From Chloroflexia bacterium (GTDB lineage Bacteria > Chloroflexota > Chloroflexia > QHBQ01 > JADMIH01), in assembly GCA_038324555.1 (NCBI GenBank), contig JBBQIC010000001.1, positions 1 to 49,778 of the forward strand: 49,778 nucleotides of DNA. The letters run 5' to 3'. Below are positions 1,543 through 49,778 of the stretch, piece after piece. How positions within the stretch are numbered: position 1 is the stretch's first letter; each line of letters starts with the position of its first letter. A program made the position numbers and the translations under genes. The notes under the pieces were generated by a model, which did not search any database, was not told the DNA's origin, and was given only the letters and a program-made list of their open reading frames with translations.

Positions 1543-1591
1543 ATCAGCCATCAGCTATCAGTTATCAGCCGTCAGAAGCTGGTAGCTGGTA
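1543..1591. repeat. Heptamer tandem hairpin (atcagcc x5 / gctggta x2)
   Basis: atcagcc atcagct atcagtt atcagcc gtcagaa gctggta gctggta. The arms pair with G-U wobbles. Confidence 0.6.
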
Positions 1592-1630
1592 ACTCACCTT
1601 ACGCAGACTCTTGAAGGAAAAGGACTACGC

Positions 1631-1660
1631 CAACCCGTAGGGGCAGGCCCCTACGGGTTG
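1631..1660. repeat. GC palindrome caacccgtaggggc-ag-gcccctacgggttg
   Basis: 14-bp perfect arms read directly from the sequence. Confidence 0.85.
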
Positions 1661-1696
1661 CTCCCCAAGTCTGGACCCTTATGCGGTATGCAGACA

Positions 1697-1717
1697 GGGC
1701 GACCACAAGGGTCGCCC
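1697..1717. repeat. GC palindrome gggcgacc-acaag-ggtcgccc
   Basis: 8-bp perfect arms. Confidence 0.7.
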
Positions 1718-1838
1718 CTACGGATAGATTTTCCTCTACCTCTAACTCTGCACAGTAACGTATCCACACCTCAATTAGCCGATTTCACCCTTATGTGATA
1801 AAATACCCTCTGCCTAGACTGATAACAGAGGGTGCCTA

Positions 1839-2888
1839 ATGCCGAACGAAATCCTGATAAATCAACTCGATATGCTGCGCGACACATACGCCCAACAACA
1901 ACGCACTGTAGTGGCGTTGCAAACCGCTTTCAAGGCCGTCACAAACGCGCAGAGCAAGGCGCAAAAGGTGTTACAAGAACTCAGCGCGCAGAGCGTGGGG
2001 ACCAGTATCACCGGCGTCAACGACTCGCAAGAAGCCTTTGCCCGCACGCGATTGAAGGAAGAGGCTATTGATCCTCTGCTGCCGGAACTACGCCGCGAGC
2101 TAAAGGGTCTGACCTCCCTGACTGCCGCGCTCAGAGACGCGAGCACTGCGCTTCGTAGCGAGCCGGTGGACGTGGTGCGCCTCGATAGAGCCTCCACGAT
2201 GCTGCAAACCGCCAGGCAGCAAGACGTGCTTGATCTGCTCCCACAGCTTGGCGAAGAATTGGACCTGGCACAGCGTGTGCTGGGTGATGAGTTCGGCCAG
2301 AGACTGCGCGACGCACTTGCCGAACAGGGCGTCGAGATCGGCGGGCGCGCCCCAAGGTTCGAGATTGGGCGTTTCGAGCTTGAGGCTAACTTCGCCCGGC
2401 GATTCGTCGCGTTACGCTACGGCAAAGATATAGTGGTGCCCCACGCTCCTATCACAGTGGACGCTGTCATGAAGGCTTACCAGGCAGCAGCCAAAGCAGT
2501 GTGCGGGCGCAACCAGGACGGCAATGCCTGGATCGCCCAGTTCCACGAAGCCTACCAGGTGGCGAAGCGCAAACGTCCGGCGAACGGAACGCGGGTAAAC
2601 ATCGTAGAGTGCTACATCGAGATAGTGCTGCTACGCCAGGGACGCGCATTCTCAAGCGAGCCGAGCAAGCGCACCTTTACCGACTACACGCGGGCGCAAT
2701 TCGCCTATGATTTCTACGAGTTCGCCGACCGCCTACGTCTCGCATACAACGACCATATGGTCAAAGCCCACAGCGCCACCAAATCCCAGACCGATAGCCC
2801 GGCAAAGAGCTTCTGGATCGTCGAAGGCGACACACCCTACGACGGGCGCTATATCGCCGACGTGGAATTCGTGAAACGTGAAACGTGA
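1839..2888 (+). CDS. Hypothetical protein: helical/coiled-coil N-terminal half plus uncharacterised C-terminal domain. First gene of the ATPase/helicase cluster.
   Basis: 349-aa ORF with ATG preceded by GAGGG (cagagggtgcctaATG). I recognise no family motif. The last 5 codons and the TGA lie inside the gtgaaac repeat. Confidence 0.6.
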   Translation: MPNEILINQLDMLRDTYAQQQRTVVALQTAFKAVTNAQSKAQKVLQELSAQSVGTSITGVNDSQEAFARTRLKEEAIDPLLPELRRELKGLTSLTAALRDASTALRSEPVDVVRLDRASTMLQTARQQDVLDLLPQLGEELDLAQRVLGDEFGQRLRDALAEQGVEIGGRAPRFEIGRFELEANFARRFVALRYGKDIVVPHAPITVDAVMKAYQAAAKAVCGRNQDGNAWIAQFHEAYQVAKRKRPANGTRVNIVECYIEIVLLRQGRAFSSEPSKRTFTDYTRAQFAYDFYEFADRLRLAYNDHMVKAHSATKSQTDSPAKSFWIVEGDTPYDGRYIADVEFVKRET

Positions 2889-2939
2889 AACGTGAAACGT
2901 GAAACGTGAAACGTGAATTACGATAATCACGTTTCACGT
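2871..2939. repeat. gtgaaac-family hairpin element
   Basis: (gtgaaac) x~6, loop gaattacgataatc, then acgtttcacgt. Contains the stop of the 1839-2888 gene. Confidence 0.9.
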
Positions 2940-2959: not shown

Positions 2960-4258
2960 GTGCTGCCTGAACCACGCCTCGCCCGGCAGATCATCGAAAC
3001 ACTCGGCCAATCGGGCACACCTATGTCAAAGGGCGTCAGCTACTACAACGTGGGTAACGAGTCGCTGCTCAACGCCATTGACACGCACTACCTGGGGTCA
3101 TACCTGGCGGACGGCGGGGCGGCCTTCAAACTGGTGGTTGGAGACTACGGCAGTGGCAAGTCGCACTTCCTGTATTGCGTGCGCGACCGCGCATGGCAAC
3201 GCGATTTCGCCGTGAGCAAGGTGGACCTCAGCCCCAAGGAAAGCCCCTACGACGATCAGCGCCGGGTATACTCGGCGGTGGCGTCCTCGCTTGTGTGGCA
3301 CGAATTGGGTAGCGGGAGCGAAGATGAGCAGGGGCTGTCGCGCTTCCTCGAAGGCACGCTGAGGCGGTTGGTCGCGCCGCACGGCTTCGATTTCCAGGAC
3401 GAGGGCGCGCAAGACGTTCCCGAAGTGCGCGCTTTCCTGCATACTCTGGAAACCACGCCCGTTGACAGCCTGAGTTTCCATAGGGCCATACAGGGCTACT
3501 TCAACGCGCTACTTCGGGGGCAGGAGCGGCGCGTCGAAACGCTAGAACGTTGGTTGCACGGCGAAGAAGTGACGCCGGAAGATATGCGCGACCTGCGCTC
3601 TATTGGTGTGACCGAGAAGATCAACAAGAACAACGCCTTCAAGATGCTGCGCTCGCTGTGCCAGGCCGTGCGCGCAATGGGCTATACAGGATTGGCCTTG
3701 CTGTTCGATGAAGGCGACCGCATGATGAGCATCGGCGGCAAAGCCGAGAAGACGGCCACCGACAACCTGCGCGAAGTGATAGACCGATGCCGGGAGGACT
3801 TACCGGGCGCGCTCTTCATGTACGCGGTCCCGCCCGATTTCCTGCATACGGTAGTGCCCAAGTATCCGGCGCTACAGCAGCGCGTCCAGGCTGCCGACTA
3901 CTTCTCGCGCGTCAACCCTTTCAGCCCACAGATAGACCTCGACCATCTCGATCTGCCCGACGGCCAACTGCTGATTGAGATCGGCAACCGCCTCCTGCCC
4001 ATCTTCGAGACGGCCTACGATGTGAGGCTTGATCACGAGAAGCAGGCCGCGAACATCGCAACTTTGTCCGGAGCCGCGTGCAATTCGTATCTGGCGATCA
4101 GCCATCGCCGGTTGTTCGTGAAGGCTATCGTCACCGAATGGTATCGCCAGAAAGAGACCGGCGAAAGTGTCATTTCGCCAGAGCACGCCGACGCCCTTAT
4201 CAAAGGGCAAAGTGAAGCCCTGAACCGCCAGGCGGACGAAGAGCAGGGGGCATATTAG
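2960..4258 (+). CDS. P-loop ATPase, BrxD/DUF2791-like
   Basis: GTG start after GAAGGAGAAGAGGAG. Walker A GDYGSGKSHF (3140-3169) and Walker B ALLFDEGD. The N-terminal 'IIETLGQSGTP' segment before the P-loop is typical of the DUF2791 architecture. Family assignment is from motif memory, not from a search. Confidence 0.65.
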   Translation: MLPEPRLARQIIETLGQSGTPMSKGVSYYNVGNESLLNAIDTHYLGSYLADGGAAFKLVVGDYGSGKSHFLYCVRDRAWQRDFAVSKVDLSPKESPYDDQRRVYSAVASSLVWHELGSGSEDEQGLSRFLEGTLRRLVAPHGFDFQDEGAQDVPEVRAFLHTLETTPVDSLSFHRAIQGYFNALLRGQERRVETLERWLHGEEVTPEDMRDLRSIGVTEKINKNNAFKMLRSLCQAVRAMGYTGLALLFDEGDRMMSIGGKAEKTATDNLREVIDRCREDLPGALFMYAVPPDFLHTVVPKYPALQQRVQAADYFSRVNPFSPQIDLDHLDLPDGQLLIEIGNRLLPIFETAYDVRLDHEKQAANIATLSGAACNSYLAISHRRLFVKAIVTEWYRQKETGESVISPEHADALIKGQSEALNRQADEEQGAY

Positions 4259-4262
4259 GGGA

Positions 4263-4334
4263 GTTAGAACGTTGGAACGTTGGAACCTGCCAACGTTCTA
4301 ACGTTCTAACGTTCTAGCGTTCTAACGTTCTAAC
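4263..4334. repeat. gttggaac/gttctaac-family hairpin element (8-nt units)
   Basis: gttagaacgttggaacgttggaac-ctg-ccaacgttctaacgttctaacgttctagcgttctaacgttctaac. Fills the gap between the two ATPase genes. Confidence 0.9.
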
Positions 4335-4336
4335 AC

Positions 4337-5761
4337 ATGGAGCAGTCACCCAAAGTCAATCACTCGCAGTTTGGCCCCGGAACGCTTCTTAAGACGTTCA
4401 TGGGCGGTTTTGAGTGGGAAGTGCAGTTTGATTCGGGGCGGCGATTCCGCCTGCCCGCAAAAGAGTTCGACGGAGTACAAGGGGTGGCGGGACCAGGGGT
4501 TGGGGACTGGGGATCAGAAGTTAGGGACCGGTCCCCAATTTTGCAGCGCGCGGCGACGTTGGACGTTGACCAGTTTCGGGCGCAGCAAACGCTGGAGAGC
4601 CTTCGCGTTGGCATCGTGCCTGTGCAGGACGCCGAAACGCTCACTATCGGTCTGGAAGCCGAGCGGGTGACGCTGGACAGGGCGTTGGACCGTAGTAGAG
4701 AACGGGGCGGCGACGTGCTGGCGATCATCGGGGATTATGGCTTCGGCAAGAGCCACTTTATCGAACTGACGGCGCGGCGCGGGTTGCGCGAGAACTTCAT
4801 CGTGGCAGGCGCAAGCCTCGACCTGGTGGAAACGCCGCCCGGCAAGGCGCACAAGATTTACGAGGCGCTGGTGACGTCGCTGCGTTATCCCGACACCGAG
4901 CAGCGCGGACTGGCTCCCCTGCTGAATAAGGCGCTGGAAAACCCCTCGGTGATCGCCCGCTTCGTAGAGTTGTGCCCCCGCGAACCGAGGAGTTGCCCAC
5001 TCGCGTCGGCGTTGCTGGCGCTCCAGGATTGTCCCAGCCAATTAGCGTTCGACCAGATCGTGCAGTGGTTGAGCGGGCAGGCCAAACCGCAGGCTGAGAT
5101 GAAAAGCTGCCTTAAGAAGCCGCCTCCCCTCTATGTCACACGCGAAACAGCGCGGCAGTATACCTACCTGCTTACAGGCATTAGCACGCTGGCGACCATG
5201 CTGGGATATAGCGGGCTAGTCGTGCTGATTGACGAGTCCGAGCACTATTCGCTGCTGCGCACTTCACAGCGCGAGCGGGCCGACTCGTTCTTCAAGGCGA
5301 TGATAGTTAGCGCGTTGGGGCTGAACAACGCTCGCATAGACGCCCGCGAAATCCCCGACAACTCTCGCGCCGAGTACCCTGTGAGCTACGCCTCCGAAGC
5401 CCACATGCTATTCCTCTTTGCTCTCACGGAGAGCGCGGACCGGATGCCGGTGGGCACATGGCTCGCGCCCTCGCATATAGTCCGATTGGACGACCGTTTT
5501 ATCGAGAAGGACATCCGCGAGTTCTTCGAGACGCTGCTGCGCTACCATGCTCTGGCCTACAGCTACTCACCCACGCCCGAAGGCCATGGGGAGACCGTCC
5601 CCAGCGCAACGGAGATGCTCTCTCGCGCTCTTGGTCAGCACCGTGTGAACCTGCGCCAGCTGATCCGCACCGCAGTGACGGTGTGCGACCTGCTCTACCT
5701 CTACCCCGACTATCTGCCCGCCAAGCTGCTGGAAGAATTGAAGCGTGGGTTGAGGGTTTAA
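4337..5761 (+). CDS. P-loop ATPase, BrxD/DUF2791-like paralog with N-terminal Tudor/SH3-like domain
   Basis: Walker A GDYGFGKSHF (4731-4760), Walker B VVLIDESE, and 'ESLRVGIVPVQDAETLTIGLE' ahead of the P-loop. The N-terminus HSQFGPGTLLKTF..WEVQFDSGRRFRLPAKEF resembles the PcrA/UvrD C-terminal Tudor-like (DUF3553-type) motif. Confidence 0.65.
   Translation: MEQSPKVNHSQFGPGTLLKTFMGGFEWEVQFDSGRRFRLPAKEFDGVQGVAGPGVGDWGSEVRDRSPILQRAATLDVDQFRAQQTLESLRVGIVPVQDAETLTIGLEAERVTLDRALDRSRERGGDVLAIIGDYGFGKSHFIELTARRGLRENFIVAGASLDLVETPPGKAHKIYEALVTSLRYPDTEQRGLAPLLNKALENPSVIARFVELCPREPRSCPLASALLALQDCPSQLAFDQIVQWLSGQAKPQAEMKSCLKKPPPLYVTRETARQYTYLLTGISTLATMLGYSGLVVLIDESEHYSLLRTSQRERADSFFKAMIVSALGLNNARIDAREIPDNSRAEYPVSYASEAHMLFLFALTESADRMPVGTWLAPSHIVRLDDRFIEKDIREFFETLLRYHALAYSYSPTPEGHGETVPSATEMLSRALGQHRVNLRQLIRTAVTVCDLLYLYPDYLPAKLLEELKRGLRV
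4489..4538. repeat. cagggat/ggggatc-family element inserted in frame in the second ATPase
   Basis: gggaccaggggttggggactggggatcag...gggaccggtcccc. ttggggac (4500-4507) pairs with gtccccaa (4531-4538). Encodes GPGVGDWGSEVRDRSP. Confidence 0.65.
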
Positions 5762-7242: not shown

Positions 7243-9654
7243 ATGGATGAGGGCATGGAACCTGATCGCCTCGAAAATGGTCACGCGCTAAAATCAGCCC
7301 TGCCGCGCACATGGGGCGCGTTCTTTGGCCGCCACGGCAATTTCACTCCCGCCCAGCTTGCCGCTATTCCGCCGTTGCTGGCGGGCGAAAACGTGCTTCT
7401 GTGCGCTCCTACCGCCTCCGGCAAAACAGAGGCCGCGCTTGCTCCGCTAATTGAGCGCCACCTGTCGCTGTCAGGCAGGACCGAGTATACACCAGCCGAT
7501 GGACGATGGACGATGGACGATGGACGCACCCAATCTCCAGCGTCGTCAACCGTCCATCGTCCATCGTCCATCGTCCATCGTCCATCATCCCTAACGATCC
7601 TCTACCTTCTGCCCACGCGGGCGCTGATCAGCGACTTGTGCGCCCGCCTTGCCGCGCCACTGGAAAGGCTGCGCGTCTCTTTTGCGGTCAAAACGCACGA
7701 CTTCACCACCTTCGACCCCAAGCGGCCCGCCGATCTGCTGCTGACCACGCCGGAGTCGCTCGATGCGCTGCTTGCGAGTCAGGCGAAGATACTGGCGGGC
7801 GTGCGGGCGGTGGTGATAGACGAATTGCACGTTTTCGACGGCACGCCTCGTGGCGATCAACTTCGGGTTGTGCTGAACAGGCTGCGACAAGTGCGCGCCC
7901 ACGCAGCCCGCGTAGGGGACGCGACTGACGATAGCCTGCAACTCGCCGCGCTTTCAGCGACCCTCACGCAACCCGAAGCCGCCGCAACGCGCTTCCTGGC
8001 TTCGGCCAAAGTGGTGCGAGCGTCGGGCCATCGCACGATACAGGCCGAGCAGATTGCACTCGCTGTGCCGGACGACGGACGATGGACGATGGACGATAGT
8101 GAAGAATCGTCCATTGTCCATCGTCCATCGTCCATAACGACCGATGCTCTGCTCAACTACCTGAGCGATTTCCGCAAGCGCGGTTGGCGCAAGGCGCTGG
8201 CCTTCTGCAACACCCGCAGCGAAGTAGAGACCTATGCCGCAGCGGTGCGGGCAGCAGGATCGCCTTTCGGCGACGCCGTGTACGCGCACTACTCTAACCT
8301 GGCGTGGGAGAGACGGCGGGAAATCGAGCAGCAGTTCGCACAGGCGCAAGCAGCCATCTGCTTCGCCAGTAGCACGCTCGAACTGGGGATAGACATCGGC
8401 AACATTGACGTGGCTCTACTCATCGGCGCGCCGGGAAGTATCGAGGCATTCGTACAGAGGACCGGAAGGGCCGGTCGCCGTCAGCCGGTAGCGAGGGTGG
8501 CCTGCTTTTATCGCACACCCCTTGAACGTATCACCTTCGACGCGCTAATCAGGGCTGAAAGTCCAGGGTCCAAGGTTCAAGGTCCAAAGTCCAACATCAA
8601 TGGGATTGGACCTTCAATCCTGGACCCTGGACCCTGGACCGCCGGAGTTGAGCAGGCGACATCAGAGAGGGACGCAGCTACATCGTCGCACTTTCACCCA
8701 TCGGTCGCCATACAGCAGATATTCAGCTTGCTCAAGCAGAGTCCGACAGGCGCGGTACGGCTCAACCCTTTAGCCGGGTTGTTTGCCGGGATGCTCTCTG
8801 CCGACGACCTTCGGGCGATAATGGGCACGTTGCAGGCTTTGGGGTATTTACAGAGCGGGCGGGCCGGGGAATGGCGAGCGGGGGAGCAGCTCAACCAGCT
8901 TGCCGACCTCCAATCGGCTGAATACACCCCTCTCAGCCTGCACAGCAATATTCCAACGTCAGGCTCGAAACCGATCAAAATCCGGGACCGGTACAGCCAG
9001 CGCGTTGTGGCAAGTGTCGACCGGCAGTGGTTTGACCGCGACCAACTTACGTTGGAAGGGCGGCCTATGAGTATAGAGTGGTACGACGGCGAGTCGCTGT
9101 GGGTCTCTGCCCAGCGCGGTCACGACACCGAGGACGTGCCGGCACGCCTGCGCTATCTCTCGACGCGACAGATATTGAGCTACGACCTTGCACGGCGCTT
9201 CCCGCCTGTTCTTGGCCTGCCGCCCGCGACAGCGCCGTTGGTCCAGCAAGATAACGGCTTGGTATGGTTTCACTGGTTAGGGGACGTTTATGGGCGGGCG
9301 GCCCTAGACCTGGTAAAGTACACGATGCCCGCAATGGAAACACCGGAGCCTGGGCTGTGCTTACTGCTGCAAGACGTGGGTGACGCACGAGGCGGGAGCG
9401 GGCTTCGCGCCGCCATCCTGTCCTGGACGCACGAGCAGGTCGTACACTACCTCCACGACAAGTATCGCCGCTATGAACCGATGCTGGCGCTTGGAGCCTA
9501 TCACCACCTGCTGCCTGTGGAACTGCGCCGCCGGGCCGTAGTGGAGCAGTTTGACGTGCCGCGTTTCTTGCAAGCCGTAGAAAATCTCAATATTGGACAT
9601 GCTGGTGAAGCCCCCACCGAGGAGCTAGGGGATTTTATAAATGGAATAGGGTGA
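7243..9654 (+). CDS. Lhr-like DEAD/DEAH-box SF2 helicase with long C-terminal extension
   Basis: Motif I CAPTASGKTEAA (about 7405-7428), motif II DELH (7819-7830), ALSATL, and motif VI VQRTGRAGRR. Carries three in-frame hairpin-element insertions. The stop codon lies inside an agggtgagggaat element. Confidence 0.85.
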   Translation: MDEGMEPDRLENGHALKSALPRTWGAFFGRHGNFTPAQLAAIPPLLAGENVLLCAPTASGKTEAALAPLIERHLSLSGRTEYTPADGRWTMDDGRTQSPASSTVHRPSSIVHRPSSLTILYLLPTRALISDLCARLAAPLERLRVSFAVKTHDFTTFDPKRPADLLLTTPESLDALLASQAKILAGVRAVVIDELHVFDGTPRGDQLRVVLNRLRQVRAHAARVGDATDDSLQLAALSATLTQPEAAATRFLASAKVVRASGHRTIQAEQIALAVPDDGRWTMDDSEESSIVHRPSSITTDALLNYLSDFRKRGWRKALAFCNTRSEVETYAAAVRAAGSPFGDAVYAHYSNLAWERRREIEQQFAQAQAAICFASSTLELGIDIGNIDVALLIGAPGSIEAFVQRTGRAGRRQPVARVACFYRTPLERITFDALIRAESPGSKVQGPKSNINGIGPSILDPGPWTAGVEQATSERDAATSSHFHPSVAIQQIFSLLKQSPTGAVRLNPLAGLFAGMLSADDLRAIMGTLQALGYLQSGRAGEWRAGEQLNQLADLQSAEYTPLSLHSNIPTSGSKPIKIRDRYSQRVVASVDRQWFDRDQLTLEGRPMSIEWYDGESLWVSAQRGHDTEDVPARLRYLSTRQILSYDLARRFPPVLGLPPATAPLVQQDNGLVWFHWLGDVYGRAALDLVKYTMPAMETPEPGLCLLLQDVGDARGGSGLRAAILSWTHEQVVHYLHDKYRRYEPMLALGAYHHLLPVELRRRAVVEQFDVPRFLQAVENLNIGHAGEAPTEELGDFINGIG
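7498..7586. repeat. gatggac-family hairpin, in frame in the helicase
   Basis: (gatggac) x4, 24-nt loop, (cgtccat) x5. Encodes [10 protein letters not shown]...[15 protein letters not shown]. Confidence 0.9.
8071..8135. repeat. gatggac-family hairpin, in frame in the helicase
   Basis: gacgacggacgatggacgatggacgat-agtgaagaat-cgtccattgtccatcgtccatcgtccat. Confidence 0.9.
8561..8640. repeat. gtccaaa/ggtccag-family hairpin, in frame in the helicase
   Basis: gtccagggtccaaggttcaaggtccaaagtccaac...tggaccttcaatcctggaccctggaccctggacc. Confidence 0.85.
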
Positions 9655-9707
9655 GGGAATAGGGTGAGAAATAAAGACTACTCCCTCACCCTACTCCCTC
9701 ACCCTAT
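9644..9707. repeat. agggtgagggaat-family hairpin between convergent helicase and phoU (likely bidirectional terminator)
   Basis: ggaatagggtgagggaatagggtgag-aaataaagacta-ctccctcaccctactccctcaccctat. Contains the helicase TGA. Confidence 0.9.
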
Positions 9708-9718
9708 TTTATCTCTTC

Positions 9719-11280: not shown

Positions 11281-11289
11281 ATTGCTCCT

Positions 11290-11443
11290 GACGATGGACG
11301 ATGGACGATGGACGATGGACGATGGACGATGGACGATGGACGATGGACGATGGACGATGGACGATGGACGATGGACGATGGACGATGGACGATGGACGAT
11401 GGACGATGATGAACGGTCGTCCATCGTCCATCGTCCATCGTCA
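11290..11443. repeat. Expanded gatggac array (~17 units) with a short complementary arm
   Basis: A heptamer tandem runs 11291-11408. The loop is atgaacggt. The reverse arm cgtccatcgtccatcgtccatcgtc is only ~3.5 units. Confidence 0.95.
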
Positions 11444-12316
11444 TCATCCAAACCGTCCCGTAATGAAGTCCTCGGTCTCCTTCTGGGCGGGCGTGAGGAA
11501 CATCTGCATGGTAGGGCCAACCTCTTTAATGCGGCCTGCCAGGAAAAAGGCGCAGTATTCGGAGACGCGGGCCGCTTGCTGAAGGTTGTGGGTAACTATC
11601 ACTGTAGTATAGTTCTTCTTCAACTCGACTATCAGGTCCTCTATTTTGCCTGTGGAGATGGGGTCGAGGGCAGAAGCAGGCTCGTCCATCAGCAACACTT
11701 CGGGGCGCAGAGCTATAGCGCGGGCGATGCACAGGCGCTGCTGCTGCCCGCCGGAGAGCGCGAACGCCGACTTCTTGAGCTTATCCTTCACGTCGTCCCA
11801 AAGCGCGGCTTCCCGCAGGCTCTTTTCCACGCGGTCGGATATTTCGCTCCTGGCATACTTGTGGACGTGAAGAGCATAGGCTACGTTGTCGTAAATAGAC
11901 TTGGGAAATGGGTTGGCCCTCTGGAAGACCATACCTACCCTAAGGCGTAACCTGACCACATCAACGTCGCTTCCAAGCAATTCCTGGGCGTCCAGCCTTA
12001 TGCTCCCCTCGGCGCGGGCGGATGGCACAATGTCGTTCATGCGGTTGATGCAGCGCAGAAAGGTGGTCTTGCCGGAACCCGAAGGCCCGATGAGCGCCGT
12101 AACTTGCTTCTCGCGTATGTCCAGGTTGATGCCGTAAAGCGCCTGCTTCGCGCCGTAGTAAAAATCGAGGTTGCTGGCTGTCACTTTCGGTTTGGCATCA
12201 GGGTTAGCCTCAAATACAGGCCGCAACCCGGTCAGCAGAGCCGGTTTTGGTTGGTCCATTAAGCTGCTTCCTGGCCCCCTTCCGTTGGGGGCTACTGTCT
12301 TTAGGTAGTTGCCCAT
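11444..12316 (-). CDS. pstB: Phosphate ABC transporter ATP-binding protein PstB (copy 1)
   Basis: [47 protein letters not shown]. The true start may be ATG 12259 (MDQPKP, AGGAAG 7 nt upstream), giving 271 aa. Confidence 0.85.
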
Positions 12317-12363
12317 AGTTTCTCGTCCCTTATCCTTTATCCCTTATCCTATTATCTTCAGGA

Positions 12364-12416
12364 CTTACGCAAAATAAACATCGTCTATCGTCCGTCGTCT
12401 ATCGTCTCTGCGTAAG
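12364..12416. repeat. cttacgca...tgcgtaag stem enclosing atcgtct heptamer tandem
   Basis: 8-bp inverted repeats at 12364-12371 and 12409-12416 flank atcgtct atcgtcc gtcgtct atcgtct. Confidence 0.6.
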
Positions 12417-22048: not shown

Positions 22049-22067
22049 AGAAGGAGCAACACCGACT

Positions 22068-29590: not shown

Positions 29591-29600
29591 CATCAGACCC

Positions 29601-38096: not shown

Positions 38097-38128
38097 TTAC
38101 TGACACTTACATGAGTTGCTAATATTCA

Positions 38129-38193
38129 GACGATGGACGATGGACGATGGACGATGGACGATTGAACGAGCATCGTCTATCGTCCATCGTCTC
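38129..38193. repeat. gatggac-family hairpin upstream of comEC
   Basis: (gacgatg) x~5, loop tgaacgagc, then atcgtctatcgtccatcgtctc. Confidence 0.9.
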
Positions 38194-38265
38194 TGGTATT
38201 GGCGGCTTATGATAAGTATCGGTAGAAGTGAGAAGCCAAAGGTAAGAGATTCACCGCTCGACCAA

Positions 38266-40047: not shown

Positions 40048-41190
40048 ATGCAAATAGGCAACGACTCGGCAAAGCCGGAAGAGCGAGATAAGGGCGCGAT
40101 TAATCACGCTCCCACCGGCTGGCGCGTCCGGCCTTACAGGGAGGAGGATATGCACGGCCTGCTCGCACTTTACAGCGATGTCTTCGGACGCGAGCGGACG
40201 GAAGAGGAATTTCGATGGAAGCTGCTGGGACCAGGCACAGCTATAGATACTGTGTGGGTAGCTGAGAGCGCAGACGGAGAGATAATCGGCCAGCACGCGG
40301 GCATACCCATGCGTCTCAAGCTAGGGGATAGTATTGTTACAGCGATGCACGCAGTTGAAGCCATGTCCCACCGCGATTTCCGGCGGGAAGGGATGCTCAC
40401 CAGGCTGGGTGGGGGGCTTTACGGGCGGTGGCAAGAGCAGGGCGTTCCACTCATCATAGGCTTGCCACACGAGGGTTGGGGGTCGCGCGCCTATGCCCTC
40501 GGCTATCGCCAGGCGTTTCCCATGAGGTGGCTGTCCCGACCCTTGCGGCCTCTCTCTATCGTGCTGTCCAAAGTCCAAAGTCGAATGTCCAAAGTCCAAA
40601 GTTCAGGGTCCAAGGTTCAGGGTCCAAGGTTCAGGGTCCAAAGTCCAAAGTCCGAAGCTGAGGGTTGGACTTTGGACTTGCAGGACATACAGGTGCTCCG
40701 CCACGAGTTCGCCGGACCCGACTTCGACGAATTGTGGAGCGACATAGGAGGCGCTTACAGCAACGCAGTAGTCAGAGACGCCCGATGGGTGCAATGGCGC
40801 TACCTGGACGCGCCCACTGCGCCTTACTCGCTCTTGCTCGCCAGCCGGAAAGGCAGGCCTACGGGTTACATAGCCTATCGCACCGTAACGTCTGGTGCAA
40901 GAAGGATCGGGCGCATCGCGGACATCTTCGCCCGGCCAAATGACACTCAAACAACCCGTGCCCTGGTGAGAGAGGCTATATCCGACCTTCGACGCAGTGG
41001 CGCAGACTCTGTGGTTGTCCTGGTTGCGGTTGGCTCACTTCTATACTCAACTATGAGGGCGCAAGGCTTCTTGTTCAATCGCGGCGAGTATAAAGTGGCC
41101 TTCATACGGCTCTCGGAGGCTATTGACGCCCAGACTATAAATGATCCCGGCAAGTGGCTCCTCACAGGGGGAGACTTTGATGTCGTTTAG
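40048..41190 (+). CDS. GNAT-family N-acetyltransferase (two-domain)
   Basis: VRPYREEDMHGLLALYSDVF, VAESADGEIIGQHAGIPM, FRREGMLTRLG (acetyl-CoA loop). Has a 115-nt in-frame repeat array. Confidence 0.75.
   Translation: MQIGNDSAKPEERDKGAINHAPTGWRVRPYREEDMHGLLALYSDVFGRERTEEEFRWKLLGPGTAIDTVWVAESADGEIIGQHAGIPMRLKLGDSIVTAMHAVEAMSHRDFRREGMLTRLGGGLYGRWQEQGVPLIIGLPHEGWGSRAYALGYRQAFPMRWLSRPLRPLSIVLSKVQSRMSKVQSSGSKVQGPRFRVQSPKSEAEGWTLDLQDIQVLRHEFAGPDFDELWSDIGGAYSNAVVRDARWVQWRYLDAPTAPYSLLLASRKGRPTGYIAYRTVTSGARRIGRIADIFARPNDTQTTRALVREAISDLRRSGADSVVVLVAVGSLLYSTMRAQGFLFNRGEYKVAFIRLSEAIDAQTINDPGKWLLTGGDFDVV
40566..40680. repeat. gtccaaa/ggtccaaggttcag array with short reverse arm, in frame in the GNAT
   Basis: About 13 heptamer units run 40566-40657. 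The reverse arm is ttggactttggacttg. Encodes SKVQSRMSKVQSSGSKVQGPRFRVQSPKSEAEGWTLDL. Confidence 0.9.
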
Positions 41191-42174: not shown

Positions 42175-42951
42175 ATGTGTTCGCGCATGATTAACAGCCC
42201 TATGAAGTCTAAGGTCCAGGGTCGAGGGTTAGAACGTTGGACTTTCGACTTTAGACTTCGGACACGCTTCAGGCACGCCATCAAGTGGGGCTACTCGCTG
42301 CGATGGAGGGCGCTGCCGCCGGATTACAACAGGACTTACTGGCTCAAATCCAATGGCTTCGAGATAACAGTTCTGCCGTCGGTCTTCCACCCGAAGTGGC
42401 ACTTTACGAGCGAATTCTTCGCGGAAACGTGCGTATCGCTCATCCCAAGGCACGGTGATTGCAGCGTGTTGGAGATCGGCACGGGCACCGGATTGATAGC
42501 CCTTTCGGCAGCACGGCGCGCAAAGAGGGTCGTGGCAGTTGACATCAACCCAGCAGCCGTGAAGTGCGCCAGGATAAACGCGACCAACAATGGCATGGCA
42601 AGTAAGATTGAAGTATACGAGGGAGATATGTTCGGTCCTGTAACGGATCGCAAATTCGACCTCATCCTGTGCAACCCGCCCTACTTCCGGGGCACACCAC
42701 GCTCCGAGGCAGACCTGGCGTACCTGGCCGGGCCAAACCTGGAGTGGATAAGCCGCATGGCAAGCGAAGCGCACAACTATCTTTCCGATGGCGGTTCTCT
42801 CGCCTGCGTGTTCGGCGATGCAGCCAATGTTCCCGCCCTCGTCGCGCTCATAGAGAAGAAGGGCTGGACGGGCCGCATCATCGCAAAGCGGGCTACCCCG
42901 TTGGAGGAGTTGACAGTTTGGCAATTCAAGGAGGGTGAGGGAATAGGGTGA
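42175..42951 (+). CDS. Class I SAM methyltransferase with NPPY motif (HemK/Mtq2-like small-domain type)
   Basis: VLEIGTGTGLIAL, VVAVDIN, DLILCNPPY. The start is uncertain (in-frame ATGs at 42175, 42187 and 42202). The N-terminal ~30 aa overlap a hairpin element. Confidence 0.8.
   Translation: MCSRMINSPMKSKVQGRGLERWTFDFRLRTRFRHAIKWGYSLRWRALPPDYNRTYWLKSNGFEITVLPSVFHPKWHFTSEFFAETCVSLIPRHGDCSVLEIGTGTGLIALSAARRAKRVVAVDINPAAVKCARINATNNGMASKIEVYEGDMFGPVTDRKFDLILCNPPYFRGTPRSEADLAYLAGPNLEWISRMASEAHNYLSDGGSLACVFGDAANVPALVALIEKKGWTGRIIAKRATPLEELTVWQFKEGEGIG
42204..42259. repeat. Degenerate gtccaaa-family hairpin at the methyltransferase 5' end
   Basis: gaagtctaaggtccagggtcgag...ttggactttcgactttagacttc. 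The arms are imperfect. Confidence 0.6.
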
Positions 42952-43062
42952 GGGAGTAGGGGCACACGGCCGTGCGCCCCTACGGGTGTCCCGTGACGTT
43001 GGGTAGGGGCGCACGGCCGTGTGCCCCTACTCCCTCACCCTATTCCCTCACCCTACTCCCTA
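42931..43062. repeat. Composite palindrome-of-palindromes (agggtgagggaat arms, each carrying a gtaggggc.cacggccgtg.gcccctac palindrome)
   Basis: gagggtgagggaatagggtgagggagtaggggcacacggccgtgcgcccctac, about 20 nt, then gtaggggcgcacggccgtgtgcccctactccctcaccctattccctcaccctactcccta. Confidence 0.9.
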
Positions 43063-46683: not shown

Positions 46684-46838
46684 CCATTGACTCCGCCCGG
46701 CGGCTAAAGCCACAGGCTACGAATACAAAGCCTCCTTTCGGAGGCTCCTTATGCAGAGAAAAGGTTCACCCCTGCCAGCCCGCGTAGGCGGGCTTTGTAT
46801 TCGTAGCCCGTGGCTTTAGCCGCCGGGCGGAGTCAATG
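46684..46838. mobile_element. MITE-like element with ~48-bp terminal inverted repeats
   Basis: ccattgactccgcccggcggctaaagccacaggctacgaatacaaagcc pairs with ggctttgtattcgtagcccgtggctttagccgccgggcggagtcaatg with 1-2 mismatches. Small inner hairpins are gcctcc-tttc-ggaggc and agcccgc-gtag-gcgggct. Confidence 0.7.
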
Positions 46839-46865
46839 ACCCCGTGCCTGACCATAAGATACACT

Positions 46866-48455
46866 ATGACCAAAGTCTTACTCGGCCAATCTTACTACCT
46901 GCGCTTCGACCCCAAATTGTGGGAGGCCATGCAGCCCTACCCGCCGCTTGGGACGCTTTACGCCGCCTCATATATACGTGAACGCGGGTACGATGTTCGC
47001 CTGTTCGACTCTATGCTGGCGGCGTCCGAAGACGAATGGGTTAGCGCGCTCGACTTGCACAAACCGGACTTCGCGGTCATCTACGAAGACGGTTTCAATT
47101 ACCTCTCCAAGATGTGCCTCACCAGAATGCGTGAAGCAGCGTTCAAGATGGCCGAAGCCGCCAAAGAGCGCGATTGCACGGTGCTTGTGTCGGGCTCCGA
47201 CGCCACCGACCACAAGGAGAGGTACTTCGCGCACGGCGTTGACGCAATTATCGTGGGAGAAGGGGAAGTGACGCTCGCACAGACGCTGGACACGCTCACA
47301 GGTAAGGAGGGCAGGCACGGGGGCAACGAGGGCAGGCACGGGGATCTGCCCCCACTGGACCGCAAGAGCATACCCGGCCTGGCCTGGCCCGACGCGCCCA
47401 ATCCTACGCCGCGCGGCTTTATGAAGGGGCTTGACACACTGCCCTTCCCAGCGTGGGACCTGGTAGACATTGAACGCTATAAGAAAATATGGCTGGAGCG
47501 CCACGGTTACTACTCAATGAATATGGTCACCACGCGCGGCTGCCCGTACCACTGCAACTGGTGCGCCAAGCCCATCTACGGCCAGCGTTACAACGTGCGC
47601 TCACCCGAAAACGCGGCTGCCGAGATGCGGTGGTTGAAAGAACACTACGCGCCCGACCACATCTGGTTCGCCGATGACATACTCGGCCTCAAACCCGGCT
47701 GGCTGGAACGCCTCGCAGCAGAAGTAGAACGGCTCGACGCGGTGACACCCTTCAAGTGCCTGCTTAGAGTTGACCTCATCAACCCCGGCGTGCCTGAAGC
47801 CCTCAAACGGGCGGGCTGCGACATAGTGTGGGTGGGCGCGGAATCCGGCTCCCAGAAGATACTGGACGCGATGGACAAAGGCACTCGCGTCGAACAGATA
47901 TACGATGCCGCTCGTAAGCTGCACGCGGCGGGCGTCAAGATAGCTTTCTTCCTGCAATTCGGCTATCCGGGCGAGGAGCACGCCGACATAGAGGCCACGC
48001 TCCGCATGGTGCGCGAGTGCGAACCGGACGACATAGGAATGTCCGTGTCCTACCCACTGCCCGGCACGAAGTTTTACGAGAGCGTCAAAGTGCAACTGGG
48101 CGAGAAGCAGAACTGGCTCGACAGCGCCGACCTCGAGATGATGTACCAGGGCGAATATTCAACAGCGTTCTACCGCAAACTGCATGTAGTTCTACACAAA
48201 GAGTACCGCGCCCGCAAGATCTGGCGAGAGTTACGCATCGGATTGCGGAATAGGAGGCTGCAAAAATCCGCAATCCGCAATCCGCAATCCGCAATCTGGA
48301 GGACCGCCGCTTCCATGCTCTACAACATGACAACACTGCCTATAGAGCGCCGGAAGTTGAACAAGTTGGCCCGCGAATCTAAGCACGGCATCGGCCCGCT
48401 CCCGCGCATTATGACGCCGGAAGCCGCCGCTACACCAACGTCACAGGTGGAGTGA
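46866..48455 (+). CDS. B12-binding-domain radical SAM enzyme (class B)
   Basis: ATG 46866 (MTKVLLGQSYYLRFDPK), TTRGCPYHCNWCAKP, VGAESGSQKILD. Two in-frame element insertions. Confidence 0.85.
   Translation: MTKVLLGQSYYLRFDPKLWEAMQPYPPLGTLYAASYIRERGYDVRLFDSMLAASEDEWVSALDLHKPDFAVIYEDGFNYLSKMCLTRMREAAFKMAEAAKERDCTVLVSGSDATDHKERYFAHGVDAIIVGEGEVTLAQTLDTLTGKEGRHGGNEGRHGDLPPLDRKSIPGLAWPDAPNPTPRGFMKGLDTLPFPAWDLVDIERYKKIWLERHGYYSMNMVTTRGCPYHCNWCAKPIYGQRYNVRSPENAAAEMRWLKEHYAPDHIWFADDILGLKPGWLERLAAEVERLDAVTPFKCLLRVDLINPGVPEALKRAGCDIVWVGAESGSQKILDAMDKGTRVEQIYDAARKLHAAGVKIAFFLQFGYPGEEHADIEATLRMVRECEPDDIGMSVSYPLPGTKFYESVKVQLGEKQNWLDSADLEMMYQGEYSTAFYRKLHVVLHKEYRARKIWRELRIGLRNRRLQKSAIRNPQSAIWRTAASMLYNMTTLPIERRKLNKLARESKHGIGPLPRIMTPEAAATPTSQVE
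47307..47353. repeat. Direct duplication gagggcaggcacgggg x2, in frame in radical SAM 2
   Basis: Units at 47307-47323 and 47328-47343 share agggcaggcacggggg with the 14485 inverted-repeat arm. Encodes EGRHGGNEGRHG. Confidence 0.8.
48239..48296. repeat. gcaatcc-family hairpin, in frame in radical SAM 2
   Basis: cggattgcggaat...(atccgca) x4.5. Encodes IGLRNRRLQKSAIRNPQSAI. Confidence 0.85.
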
Positions 48456-48457
48456 TG

Positions 48458-48507
48458 GACGTGAAACGTGAAACGTGATTATCGTGTTCACGTTTCACGT
48501 TTCACGC
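48458..48507. repeat. gtgaaac-family hairpin between radical SAM 2 and 3
   Basis: gacgtgaaacgtgaaacgtga-ttatcgtgt-tcacgtttcacgtttcacgc. The loop is homologous to the reverse complement of the 2917-2928 loop. Confidence 0.9.
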
Positions 48508-48519
48508 ATCAGAATTACT

Positions 48520-49778
48520 ATGGACATCCTACTGACGCACGGCTACTTTATAGCCGAAGACCCACACGAACAGAAGATAATGAAGCCGTACCCCACACTT
48601 GGGATACTGTATATCTCCTCGCACCTTAAAGCTAAAGGCTTCAGCGTAGAACTGTACGACACCACTTTCTCCACGAAAGCCGCTTTCCGGGCGTATTTAG
48701 AAGCGAAGCGTCCGCCCATCGTGGGCATCTACACTAATCTGATGACCAAGCTCAACGTTATCCCCATGATCGGGTGGTGCAAATCAGTCGGGGCCAAGGT
48801 CGTGCTGGGCGGACCCGAACCTCCGCACTACGCGGACGAGTTCCTAGACGCAGGGGCCGACGTGGTGGTCATCAGCGAGGGCGAAGAGACGCTGGAAGAG
48901 CTGATCCCTGCCCTACGGGTAGGGGCACACGGCCGTGTGCCCCTACAAGGCGTCAGAGGCATAGTGTTCCGCGACGAAGACGGTAAAACGGTGCGCACGC
49001 CTCCGCGCCCGCTCATAAAGAACCTGGACGCACAGCCCTTCCCCGACCGCGAGGCGATTGATATGGACCGCTACGTAGATACCTGGCGTACAAATCATGG
49101 ACGTGGCTCGGTGTCCCTCATAACGGCGCGCGGCTGTCCTTACACCTGTAAATGGTGCAGCCACTCGGTCTTCGGCAATACCCACAGACGGCGCTCTCCT
49201 GAGAATGTGCTCGCCGAGCTAGAGGAGATTATCGAACGCTACAGCCCCGACCAGCTATGGTACGCCGACGACGTGCTAACTATCCATCGAAGTTGGACCC
49301 TCAACTTCGCCGCGCTGCTAAAAGAGCGGGGCGTCAAGATACCGTTCGAGTGCATTTCGAGGGCCGACCGCCTGGACCCGCAAGTAATAGACGCTCTTGC
49401 GGAGATAGGCTGCGACAAGCTGTGGATAGGCGCGGAGAGCGGCAGCCAGAGGATACTTGACGCGATGAGCAGGCGCACGCAGGCAGAGGACGTGCAAGCC
49501 AAGACGCATATGCTCAGGCGCGCGGGCATCCAAACGGGCATGTTCATCATGCTCGGCTACGAAGGCGAGGAGATACCGGACATCGAGGCCACGGTTGACC
49601 ATCTCAAAAAGGCCGACCCCGACATCTTCCTAACCACAGTCGCCTACCCCATCAAAGGCACCCCCTACTACAACGAAGTCGAGAGCCGCATCATAGAGCA
49701 GACATCCTGGCAGGGGCGCACCGACCGCGACCTCACCGTAGCCGGACGCCACTCCAAACGCTTCTACTCCTTCGCCAC
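48520..49778 (+). CDS. B12-binding-domain radical SAM enzyme (class B), 3' partial
   Basis: Not in the ORF track because it runs off the window. I translated frame 1 from ATG 48520 to the end without finding a stop. Contains MDILLTHGYFIAEDPHEQK..., ITARGCPYTCKWCSH and IGAESGSQRILD. The last complete codon ends at 49776. Confidence 0.8.
   Translation, partial: MDILLTHGYFIAEDPHEQKIMKPYPTLGILYISSHLKAKGFSVELYDTTFSTKAAFRAYLEAKRPPIVGIYTNLMTKLNVIPMIGWCKSVGAKVVLGGPEPPHYADEFLDAGADVVVISEGEETLEELIPALRVGAHGRVPLQGVRGIVFRDEDGKTVRTPPRPLIKNLDAQPFPDREAIDMDRYVDTWRTNHGRGSVSLITARGCPYTCKWCSHSVFGNTHRRRSPENVLAELEEIIERYSPDQLWYADDVLTIHRSWTLNFAALLKERGVKIPFECISRADRLDPQVIDALAEIGCDKLWIGAESGSQRILDAMSRRTQAEDVQAKTHMLRRAGIQTGMFIMLGYEGEEIPDIEATVDHLKKADPDIFLTTVAYPIKGTPYYNEVESRIIEQTSWQGRTDRDLTVAGRHSKRFYSFA
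48919..48946. repeat. Perfect 28-nt palindrome gtaggggcacacgg|ccgtgtgcccctac, in frame in radical SAM 3
   Basis: Read directly from the sequence. Encodes VGAHGRVPL within the B12-binding domain region. Confidence 0.9.

Follow-up and report, generated by a model that had tools for sequence, protein, structure and literature searches.

The window discussed here is the whole stretch of DNA that was analysed, namely positions 1 to 49,778 (49,778 nt, forward strand) of contig JBBQIC010000001.1 from the Chloroflexia bacterium assembly GCA_038324555.1, which make up the contig in full. A gene map built from open reading frames (ORFs) and Pfam assignments presents it as an ordinary chromosomal region, and the nearest named homologues of its proteins come from metagenome-assembled genomes (MAGs) of Chloroflexia and Chloroflexota. 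It carries genes for two BrxC/D-like ATPases, a PIN protein, a Uma2 nuclease and an Lhr-like DEAD-box helicase; phoU, two pstB, pstA, pstC and two pstS genes with a histidine kinase and a response regulator; fabH, fabD, an adenosine deaminase gene, accC, asp23 and nusB; and genes for a sigma/anti-sigma pair, a glycoside hydrolase, ComEC, an ArnT-like glycosyltransferase, a GNAT protein and radical-SAM enzymes. Scattered between and within these genes are short elements whose arms consist of tandemly repeated units, mostly of 7 nt, and which in most cases can fold back into a hairpin. These elements are the subject of the present text.

Hairpins with tandem-repeat arms between and within genes

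Arrays were called by Tandem Repeats Finder, inverted arms by an inverted-repeat finder, and stems were folded with RNAfold. Short-period arrays filled 82 Tandem Repeats Finder rows, nearly all of period 7, 8 or 13. For the counts of arrays and partners, the arrays of Tandem Repeats Finder were searched, with gaps disallowed, for complementary arms up to 160 nt away, and 20 dinucleotide-preserving shuffles of the window provided the chance baseline. Arrays of period 6-14 numbered 65 in the window versus 1-10 (about 6) per shuffle, those of period 7 numbered 41 versus 0-3 (about 1), and 43 arms had a reverse-complement partner within 160 nt versus none in the shuffles. According to the inverted-repeat finder, most arrays are paired with a reverse-complement array 2-100 nt away. 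Merging the arrays yielded 34 elements, comprising 28 hairpins and six one-armed arrays (at 12326, 12380, 18224, 18261, 32271 and 34196), which occupy 5.1% of the window. Five palindromes without tandem arms, similar to repetitive extragenic palindromic (REP) sequences, were counted apart and bring the total to about 39, or 6.1% of the window.

The elements are 50-180 nt long, with units mostly of 7 nt and also of 8 and 13 nt; the 41 period-7 arrays span 2-17 units. In the 28 hairpins the complementary arms are 12-55 nt long and enclose a short loop that is not palindromic, and the folding energies of the stems range from -28 to -130 kcal/mol. The two arms can be very unequal (17 versus 4, 13 versus 2 and 7 versus 1.5 units). 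By unit, the elements fall into families: GATGGAC/GATAGAC with seven copies, GTGAAAC with three, the 13-mer AGGGTGAGGGAAT with seven, GTCCAAA with five, CAGGGAT with three, the 8-mer GGTTGGAA/GTTGGAAC with three, and several units present once. In total, the unit families number no fewer than a dozen; they are unrelated to each other, and most cannot form quadruplexes. A G3 tract in every unit was found only in the three CAGGGAT copies and the element at 4489, and most units, such as GATGGAC, GTGAAAC, GTCCAAA and TTGGATT, lack such tracts.

An earlier note, made from the letters of the window, had listed more than 40 hairpin copies in several sequence families, often with different unit numbers in the two arms. 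Arrays are indeed present at every coordinate it gave, each of its families, single-copy units included, was recovered, and unequal arms are frequent. Its count was somewhat too high, and six of its hairpins have a single arm. Two features had escaped it: a TGAATTA hairpin at 32577-32648 and the presence of 14 copies inside ORFs. We can exclude that the elements are assembly artefacts, since two independent assemblies reproduce them. When aligned by MAFFT, a contig of the Logan assembly of run SRR24807096 (L114) matches positions 2910-7526 at 99.76% identity and without indels. In assembly GCA_038239605.1, the same elements are found in the same places on four contigs.

Twenty of the 34 elements are intergenic. 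Most of these lie between co-directional genes in apparent operons (pstA-pstB1-pstB2-phoU, fabH-fabD, asp23-nusB and the sigma/anti-sigma pair), where they run from the stop codon of one gene to just before the ribosome-binding site or start codon of the next (Table 1). Nine of them overlap or supply the stop codon of a neighbouring gene. The GTGAAAC unit contains TGA, and all three copies of this family begin at the stop codon of a gene.

The other 14 elements lie within ORFs, distributed over seven or more protein genes, and none of them closes the reading frame. The mean number of open sense frames is 1.86 for the coding copies, 0.55 for the intergenic ones and 1.56 for random segments of the same length. 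Each coding copy is in frame and free of stop codons, and the stop-rich copies are all found outside genes; such a pattern is expected if selection filters the insertions and the coding copies are translated. A heptamer array crosses all three frames every 21 nt and so encodes a seven-residue peptide repeat, for example DGRWTMD or VHRPSSI. Judging from the sequence, the coding copies would be translated as 10-35 extra residues in variable loops or linkers.

Comparison with homologues agrees with the placement of the coding copies in variable regions. The Lhr-like helicase has 803 aa versus about 685-750 aa in its homologues, and its inserts at 7497, 8064 and 8553 (about 34, 22 and about 30 aa) are lineage-specific, being flanked on both sides by conserved motifs and absent from 15 homologues. 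Likewise, three to four inserts of the ArnT-like glycosyltransferase are missing from nine homologues, and the insert at 48239 is missing from the radical-SAM orthologues of two genus-level relatives (L117 and L118). The target sequence was often replaced rather than merely interrupted, with a net gain of 3 aa for 18 codons at 4489, 15 for 24 at 39391 and 10 for 19 at 48239. The element at 4489 stands in for a linker of similar length, between flanks that are 78% identical to the homologue in the more distant relative L111. We would also mention a glycosyltransferase homologue from a Chloroflexia MAG (P0271), which has a repeat of its own, SLLATRYSLLATRY, in the loop matching the element at 39611; judging by its sequence, a relative may here have acquired a heptamer array in frame independently.

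Comparison with a sister strain

The four contigs of GCA_038239605.1 represent a sister strain and cover 19.8 kb of the window at 93.5-97.5% identity. In the statistics on this comparison, elements comprise the tandem-arm elements together with the five REP-like palindromes. They make up 6% of the compared DNA and contain 8 of the 13 indels (24-fold enrichment, Fisher p = 2.6e-7), while substitutions amount to 9.7% within them and 3.7% outside (p = 8e-20). Several indels correspond to whole units. At 29538 the sister strain has 7 nt more, exactly one GTGAAAC unit, within about 900 nt that are otherwise identical; at 2870 it has 14 nt, or two units, less; and at 30369 it has 14 nt more in the left arm and 8 nt more in the right arm, along with many substitutions. 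Instead of the long array between pstB1 and pstB2, the sister strain carries about six mixed GATAGAC/GATGGAC units with another loop, a difference of about -60 nt. These differences establish the microsatellite-like variation of arm length that the earlier note had proposed. At 9641..9712 the right end shows a cluster of substitutions, through which the array of the sister strain reaches further although the length is unchanged.

At two sites one hairpin has taken the place of another. Immediately after GAGTGA, the end of a radical-SAM gene with its stop codon, the window has a GTGAAAC hairpin and the sister strain has (GTATTGC)n...(GCAATAC)n, and homology resumes right after it. At 10400 the outer stem TTAGGGT/ACCCTA is common to both strains, and the inner 28 nt of the window correspond in the sister strain to a 40-nt segment with a GTAG-type REP palindrome. 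Overall, among the ten intergenic tandem-arm elements compared, four changed in unit number, two were replaced, three differ by substitutions only and one is identical; of the three coding elements, two are identical and one shows substitutions only.

Beyond the window, the sister strain contains a further hairpin of (CGAAAGA)n (L113, 2523-2574). Genus-level relatives (L117-L119, 75-80% nucleotide identity) have few arrays, and these use units of the window (ACGTTTC, ATTCCGC, CGTATTG/ATACGCA) at other loci. Together with L111, these relatives are too diverged or rearranged for insertion boundaries to be read at the DNA level. The sister and Logan assemblies have ten contig ends here, of which seven are located in a hairpin or next to one, as is expected when the repeats recur genome-wide.

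Other repeats in the window also vary. Inside a radical-SAM gene, positions 47286-47327 hold an in-frame 21-nt tandem duplication (GAGGGCAGGCACGGGGGCAAC, REP-like), with two copies in the window, one in the sister strain and none in genus-level relatives. The contig start carries tandem repeats of 45, 19 and 6 nt (138-332 and 1007-1185), and the proprotein-convertase P-domain gene located there has 12-nt and 3-nt indels relative to the sister strain.

Table 1. Tandem-arm elements of the window, with unit numbers after each array; strand is given for copies inside genes
Position	Strand	Structure	Location and remarks
1542..1591		(CATCAGC)4.9 facing (AGCTGGT)2.1; weak hairpin with G.U pairs	Between co-directional genes; substitutions only in sister strain
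2870..2938		(CGTGAAA)6.9, loop TTACGATAATC, (ACGTTTC)1.5	Last codons and stop of ORF 1839..2888
4258..4341		8-nt (GTTGGAAC)3, loop CTGCC, (AACGTTCT)5.4	Spacer of two BrxC/D-like genes, stop to start; identical in sister strain and Logan contig
4489..4541	+	G-rich 7-mers (GGGGACT/GGGGATC type), short complementary arm	BrxC/D-like gene 2, aa 51-68
7497..7590	+	(CGATGGA)4.3, 24-nt loop, (TCGTCCA)6.9	Helicase, between motif I and motif Ia
8064..8139	+	(GGACGAT)4, loop AGTGAAGA, (ATCGTCC)4.3	Helicase, 22-aa in-frame insertion
8553..8643	+	(GTCCAAG)4.9 facing (CCTGGAC)3.1	In frame, variable linker of helicase
9641..9712		13-nt (GGAATAGGGTGAG)2, loop AAATAAAGA, (CTACTCCCTCACC)2.2	Convergent spacer; overlaps helicase stop codon
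10400..10467		TAGGGTGAGGGAGTAG, loop TCCTATTC, (CCTATTCCCTCAC)3.4	pstB2-phoU spacer
11281..11458		(GACGATG)17 perfect units, loop ATGAACGG, (TCGTCCA)~4	Fills pstB1-pstB2 spacer; overlaps pstB1 stop, adjoins AGGAG ribosome-binding site of pstB2
12326..12407		Two unrelated one-armed arrays, (TCCCTTA)~4 and (ATCGTCT)4	pstA-pstB1 spacer; substitutions only in sister strain
18224..18287		One-armed (ACTTTGG)3.7 and (CCTATCCTT)3	Histidine kinase-pstS spacer
19762..19836	-	(GACGATG)4.1, loop TTGAGGCGTGCTA, complementary arm	Histidine kinase aa 146-171, between sCache and HAMP domains
21230..21303		(GACGATA)3.9, loop TGAGCAGGC, (ATCGTCT)4.9	Upstream of response-regulator gene and consensus promoter
22277..22345		8-nt (GAAGGTTG)3 facing (TTCCAACC)4	Directly upstream of fabH
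23345..23423		(GACGATG)3.6, loop TTAGTAAGC, (CCATCGT)5.1	fabH-fabD spacer; overlaps fabH stop
26697..26781		(GGTTGGAA)6, loop CAGT, (CAACCTTC)3	Methyltransferase-NUDIX spacer; GGAGG immediately after
27352..27435		13-nt (GGAATAGGGTGAG)3.5 facing (CTACTCCCTCACC)2.2	Spacer of NUDIX and thiamine-binding-protein genes
29531..29595		(GTGAAAC)3.6, loop TGTCGTAA, (TTCACGT)2.7	asp23-nusB spacer; asp23 stop codon within
30369..30420		CAGGGATCGGGGATCAG facing (GATCCCT)2.3	Spacer of two ACP-like genes
32271..32300	-	One-armed (GACTTTG)4.3	Anti-sigma factor gene, in frame, between zf-HC2 and LGFP domains
32577..32648		AT-rich TGAATTA / 14-mer CTTACTTCATAATT, 30-bp stem	Sigma/anti-sigma spacer
33536..33601		GGAGTAGGGTGAGGGAGTAGGG, loop ATAAAGA, (CTACTCCCTCACC)2.7	Just past 3' end of glycoside-hydrolase gene
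34196..34229	-	One-armed (GAGTTYT)4.9	Glycoside-hydrolase gene, in frame, between catalytic and LGFP regions
38128..38197		(GACGATG)4.9, loop TGAACGAGC, (ATCGTCT)3	Membrane glycosyltransferase-comEC spacer
38727..38796	-	(ATTTTGG)4.1, 14-nt loop, (TCCAAAA)4; perfect 28-bp stem	ArnT-like membrane glycosyltransferase, variable region
39220..39298	-	(AGGGATC)4 facing (CCCTGAC)3.6	Same ArnT-like glycosyltransferase; in-frame insertion, lengthens loop
39391..39462	-	13-nt (ATAGGGTGAGGGA)2 and complementary arm	ArnT-like glycosyltransferase; clean 15-aa in-frame insertion
39611..39662	-	GGTAGGGTGAGGGATGAGGGAGTAG, loop TTC, CTATTCCCTCATCCCTCACCCTACT	In frame, lengthened loop of ArnT-like glycosyltransferase
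40559..40685	+	(GTCCAAA and variants)13.1 facing (TTGGACT)2.1	GNAT acetyltransferase inter-domain linker, aa 171-213
42204..42260	+	AAGTCTAAGGTCCAGGGTCGAGGG facing TTGGACTTTCGACTTTAGACTT	Methyltransferase ORF aa 10-29, or leader if true start downstream
42929..43061		Composite: 13-mer arms (AGGGTGAGGGAAT) around two inverted GTAGGGGCRCACGGCCGTGYGCCCCTAC palindromes	55-nt arms, 98% complementary
48239..48296	+	GGATTGCGGAAT, loop, (AATCCGC)4.6	10-aa in-frame insertion, C-terminal part of radical-SAM gene 46836..48455; identical in sister strain
48453..48511		(ACGTGAA)2.9, loop TTATCGTG, (TTCACGT)2.9	Begins at radical-SAM gene stop codon

Proposed dispersal, slippage and the alternatives

We consider it reasonably probable that the elements form a multi-family class of dispersed, non-autonomous, non-coding hairpin repeats, comparable to REP sequences and Rickettsia palindromic elements (RPEs), whose arms evolve by slippage and whose locations are confined by selection. 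Part of the evidence for dispersal comes from the loops. All three GTGAAAC copies share the 17-nt loop GTGAT(TA)TCGT(A)ATTCAC, in both orientations, and two of the three also have the outer flank CATCAGA in common. The loop of the 29536 element recurs in a copy on a JGI metagenome contig, where the flank is unrelated; this was the one extra locus retrieved by a metagenome scan for the GTGAAAC hairpin with its loop, too few for an estimate of copy number. The elements at 9641 and 33536 have loop and arm in common, and three of the seven GATGGAC copies, all intergenic, have loosely similar loops (TGAACGAGC, TGAGCAGGC and TTAGTAAGC). Hence, the earlier note was right about loop conservation for GTGAAAC and for the pair at 9644 and 33536, loosely so for part of the GATGGAC family, and the rule is not general. 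Its idea that a template had been dispersed gains support from the shared GTGAAAC loop, from the metagenome copy and from GATGGAC-type units inside unrelated genes. It had also pointed out that units confined to the window would speak for local duplication; units occur in sister-strain sequence from beyond the window, in other Chloroflexia MAGs and in a Pyrinomonadaceae MAG.

The same data bear on an origin in place, in which each element would be a slippage-expanded heptamer microsatellite that acquired its second arm by intramolecular template switching (fold-back copying), the units being shared through mutational or compositional preference rather than common descent. The six one-armed arrays and the very unequal arms would fit such an origin, as would the array at 9641-9712, which was extended in the sister strain by clustered substitutions. 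Period 7 is also dominant in many unrelated genomes (420 of 812 arrays), arrays of (GATGGAC)n are widespread among phyla, extend to eukaryotes and mostly lack a partner arm, and the loops of GATGGAC hairpins are unrelated between genomes. On the other hand, the GATGGAC/GATAGAC unit occupies seven sites in unrelated contexts, two of them inside different genes whose homologues have nothing similar at that place; loops are shared among the GTGAAAC copies, the metagenome copy included, and between the elements at 9641 and 33536; and one orthologous site, with flanks only about 5% diverged, holds two different complete hairpins in the two strains. We therefore regard growth in place as an improbable account of the elements as a whole. 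In our view, existing elements give rise to new copies, which then diverge fast by slippage and substitution, and some local growth of arrays is likely as well.

Under the dispersal reading, an existing element would be copied to a new site, often replacing a stretch of the target and leaving no duplication. Flanking direct repeats were no better than those at 2000 random position pairs (best repeats of 0, 2, 3 and 4 nt in 1, 13, 9 and 5 elements), and inspection of the GATGGAC family by eye showed no tetranucleotide conserved in the flanks. The lack of target-site duplications argues against a MITE (miniature inverted-repeat transposable element) moved by a DDE transposase. In turn, shared units and loops at unrelated loci, missing duplications and target replacement fit copying on single-stranded hairpin DNA, for which template switching between hairpins during replication, or a REP-type tyrosine (HUH) transposase acting in trans, would be candidates. 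As the sister strain demonstrates, whole units are then gained and lost, apparently by slipped-strand mispairing, and slippage of each arm accounts for the unequal unit numbers and for the strain differences at one site. Finally, copies are found in spacers and in in-frame loops, presumably as selection lets them persist where they are nearly harmless. We take effects on the host, such as mRNA structure, protein-loop variation or frameshift switching, to be by-products and not the reason the elements exist.

It is tempting to go further and suppose that the elements spread without any dedicated transposase: a stable hairpin would stall replication, and the nascent strand would switch by microhomology to a distant hairpin, copy it and return, thereby overwriting spacers between genes and linkers of proteins with tandem-armed hairpins. 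We offer this as a tentative idea with the odds against it. It would explain the absence of target-site duplications, the replacement of target sequence, the mosaics with nested REP sequences and the swaps between hairpin families. If true, the elements would reflect a mutational process that is general and reinforces itself, that is at work in Chloroflexota, Acidobacteriota and other phyla, and that continually creates new protein loops and frameshift-prone arrays.

Could the hairpins instead serve the host as RNA elements? They might block 3' exonucleases, offer RNase III sites or uncouple translation, and thereby set the relative expression of neighbouring genes as REP sequences and bacterial interspersed mosaic elements (BIMEs) do in Escherichia coli operons, the coding copies being accidents. 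The position of most intergenic copies between co-directional genes, from the stop codon to just before the ribosome-binding site, and the great stability of the stems speak for such a role, and heptamer repeats of Xanthomonas are mostly transcribed (PMC4692102). Nevertheless, G.U pairs, expected in excess on the transcribed strand, number 57 in sense and 54 in antisense orientation, with no sign of strand-specific selection on RNA. At corresponding sites the sister strains can differ in sequence, in the number of units and even in family, genus-level relatives have few such hairpins in the orthologous region, and a stable mRNA hairpin has no obvious benefit in the 14 coding copies. Rfam 15 gave no match at gathering score in the window. 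The earlier note had raised a terminator or stabiliser function; no T runs were found in the 3' flanks of the hairpins, and a terminator scan of the window returned 35 sites versus about 42 expected, with no full tandem-arm hairpin among them and one weak call that covers the inner loop of 8553-8643 only. On the missing U-tracts and the scan, we reject intrinsic termination, and we judge a regulatory origin in general to be improbable too.

A different use could be imagined for the coding copies, namely that of contingency loci, in which the change of a 7-nt unit shifts the frame and thereby switches genes of defence, sensing or the cell surface (phase variation). Perfect arrays of four to five units do occur in the genes for the helicase, the histidine kinase, the glycosyltransferase, the anti-sigma factor and the cell-wall-associated hydrolase, the helicase gene is near the BrxC/D-like genes, and unit numbers do change between strains in intergenic copies. 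Against this, all coding copies of the window keep the frame, unit number is unchanged in the three of them that could be compared and changed in four of the ten intergenic ones, the arrays are short beside known phase-variable repeats, and housekeeping-type genes (radical SAM, GNAT) are affected as well. Phase variation thus appears to us very improbable.

Several observations weigh against the dispersal that we favour. Mobility is inferred, and an insertion event was never caught: none of the 13 tandem-arm elements compared with the sister strain is opposed to an empty site, such that the comparison of orthologous loci proposed in the earlier note yielded the arm-length polymorphism it sought and no difference in presence or absence. 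The replacement of hairpin by hairpin in the absence of such differences is unlike random insertion. The window contains no transposase gene in the Pfam and ORF map, that of a REP-associated tyrosine transposase (RAYT) included. Conservation of the GATGGAC loop across genomes was not found, and within the window these loops are alike in part; one-armed arrays exist and single arms expand alone, such that some copies could have grown in place. The regular order of stop codon, hairpin and ribosome-binding site in operons could reflect a selected function, and the translation of the coding copies is deduced from frame conservation only. Sites that are replaced and never empty are explained poorly by every model, which suggests that existing hairpins are themselves preferred targets.

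Known repeat systems and other genomes

The closest published architecture is that of Xanthomonas campestris and X. axonopodis, in which arrays of 2-26 GGGAATC heptamers form 70-75 convergent pairs per genome that are able to fold into stem-loops (Rehm et al. 2015, PMC4692102). Most of these arrays are found outside genes, where the neighbouring genes are co-directional and a stop or start codon is no more than 50 bp away, and they show no link to insertion sequences (PMC4692102). As in our window, two arrays of one unit stand close together in convergent orientation with variable unit number. Yet the Xanthomonas repeats are a single G-rich family interpreted through quadruplexes, whereas the window has many unrelated families, units of 8 and 13 nt as well, and 14 of 34 copies in frame in genes; most units do not fit the quadruplex unit GGGNATC, and the replacement of one family by another at a site is not described there. 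The closest lineage is Chloroflexus aurantiacus, with its scattered, "probably transposed" heptamer satellites Fam_1_14_23, (GATAGRA)n (Subirana and Messeguer 2019, PMC6749651). They belong to the same class and, compared by the printed unit alone, are close to GATAGAC/GATGGAC, but that work concerns tandem satellites only and mentions no inverted arms, coding copies or strain comparison. Both precedents weaken the novelty claimed in the earlier note. In the literature searched, we found no description of many-family tandem-armed hairpins, of their in-frame presence in many proteins or of family replacement at orthologous sites.

REP sequences, their hairpin pairs (REPINs) and the RAYT proteins, with families that bear a GTAG or CGTC tag (Di Nocera et al. 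2013, PMC3733652; Bertels and Rainey 2011, PMC3116915), share with our elements a small size, dispersal as hairpins, multiple families, a mostly intergenic and sometimes in-frame location, and the lack of target-site duplication. They differ in that REP stems are unique sequences of 5-13 bp and not tandem arrays. Moreover, the GATGGAC, GTGAAAC, GTCCAAA, GGTTGGAA, CAGGGAT and TTGGATT families lack the GTAG/CGTC end tag, and most families also lack the short tail. Only the 13-mer family carries GTAG, next to its loop; the start of its unit GTAGGGTGAGGGA resembles the REP head GTAGGGG, and at 42929-43061 REP pairs lie between 13-mer arms. Judging from these motifs, a link of at least the 13-mer family to a REP system is possible.

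The window also contains classical GTAG...CTAC palindromes of REP type, at 1620-1662, 14412-14516, 30885-30962, 42953-43037 and 46680-46843. Their core is GTAGGGGC(A/G)...GCCCCTAC; some form inverted pairs (REPIN-like, 14412-14516), one has 39-nt arms without a spacer and another has 67-nt arms. By analogy, they would imply a RAYT-type transposase elsewhere in the genome.

Among other systems, RPEs, as cited in PMC3733652, are palindromes that form in-frame insertions in many unrelated protein genes, where translation turns them into additional loops. The insertion of our elements into genes for a helicase, a glycosyltransferase, a radical-SAM enzyme, a BrxC/D-like protein, a histidine kinase and a GNAT protein is similar. 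In the description cited there, though, RPEs are 100-150 nt long with a fixed consensus, have neither tandem arms nor unit variation and belong to an unrelated lineage; on this description, host lineage and tandem-arm architecture make membership of the RPEs implausible. Cyanobacterial short tandemly repeated repetitive (STRR) sequences and long-unit simple sequence repeats such as TAACTGA form several families of heptanucleotide arrays, mostly intergenic, in filamentous and environmental bacteria of several phyla, with stop-containing units in one orientation only in ORFs (MacGregor 2015, PMC4679880). They resemble our arrays in their head-to-tail 7-nt units and variable copy number, but they are direct arrays, with one inverted case among 170 TAACTGA sets and no hairpins or in-frame insertions described. 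MITEs are likewise small, numerous, without coding capacity and bounded by terminal inverted repeats; our elements differ in having no target-site duplication, no known parent insertion sequence, and variable tandem arrays in place of a fixed terminal repeat. Unlike CRISPR repeats, the units are contiguous, without spacers, and set as two inverted arrays. Mycobacterial interspersed repetitive units (MIRUs) are tandem repeats in operon spacers that overlap the adjacent stop and start codons.

The tandem-armed architecture is not peculiar to this genome and is present in another phylum. Paired hairpins are common in other Chloroflexia MAGs (L026, L043, L069 and L095), and an 8-kb segment of a Pyrinomonadaceae MAG from the Acidobacteriota (L012; DASWNP010000031.1, 32001-40000) contains eight of them, in families unrelated to those of the window (AATGATG, CAGTGAG, AGCAATC/AGCTCTC and TCGTAAA) and with several stems that rely on G.T pairs. 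In GTDB representative genomes, (GATGGAC)3 occurs at more than 110 loci in many phyla; among the matches listed, about half come from Chloroflexota and the others from Bacteroidota, Acidobacteriota, Planctomycetota, Lentisphaeria and further groups. A search with the peptides DGRWTMD and VHRPSSI returned mostly short spurious ORFs, eukaryotic ones included. Each group uses 79-91 distinct heptamers in its GTDB loci and the array is also found in eukaryotes; a vocabulary shared across phyla is thus not meaningful on the strength of (GATGGAC)3 alone. The same three-unit array is present in 17 IMG/VR viral contigs, two of which have paired arrays (L122 and L127); these contigs may be phages of Chloroflexota or mis-binned host DNA, and the finding is too little to argue for spread by phages.

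Some further features of the window deserve a comment. Between 2960 and 9654, two BrxC/D-like ATPases, a small ORF, a PIN protein, a Uma2 protein and the Lhr-like helicase form a conserved cluster, whose core gene order is also found in L111, close to toxin-antitoxin genes. The cluster has the appearance of a defence island, although not of a canonical BREX system. The Uma2-family nuclease, with one copy in the window and one in a sister contig, was considered as a partner of the elements and rejected, as tblastn found no further copies in 1.1 Mb of loci. At 21347-21376 (+) there is a perfect sigma-70 consensus promoter, TTGACA-18 nt-TATAAT, and this sequence points to the + strand ORF 21440..22048, after which come a 65-aa ORF and fabH, as the real gene downstream in place of the longer - strand ORF 21379..22062. 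Positions 33390-33499 form a perfect 41-nt inverted repeat with the core GTCATTCTGAGCGAAGCGAAGAATCT. In other Chloroflexia MAGs (L002, L003 and L029), a conserved element of about 130 nt has this core at its 3' end; the element begins TTC(TGAAACG)3TGATGCGG, contains the GTGAAAC unit and may be a separate dispersed element or a small RNA.

Overall, the elements fill most of the intergenic space in several operons and about 5% of this stretch, and they would add 10-35 residues to at least seven proteins. They are the fastest-changing DNA between the two sister strains, and owing to such rapid change they can readily supply strain markers, variation in protein loops and possibly frameshift switches. 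They also explain the break points of short-read assemblies in these organisms and, since many units have no stop codon, they can lengthen spurious ORFs and mislead the choice of start codons. The over-representation of heptanucleotide repeats in many bacteria is unexplained (PMC4692102), and a lineage in which heptamer hairpins are paired, dispersed and rapidly replaced offers a system for studying their origin and spread.

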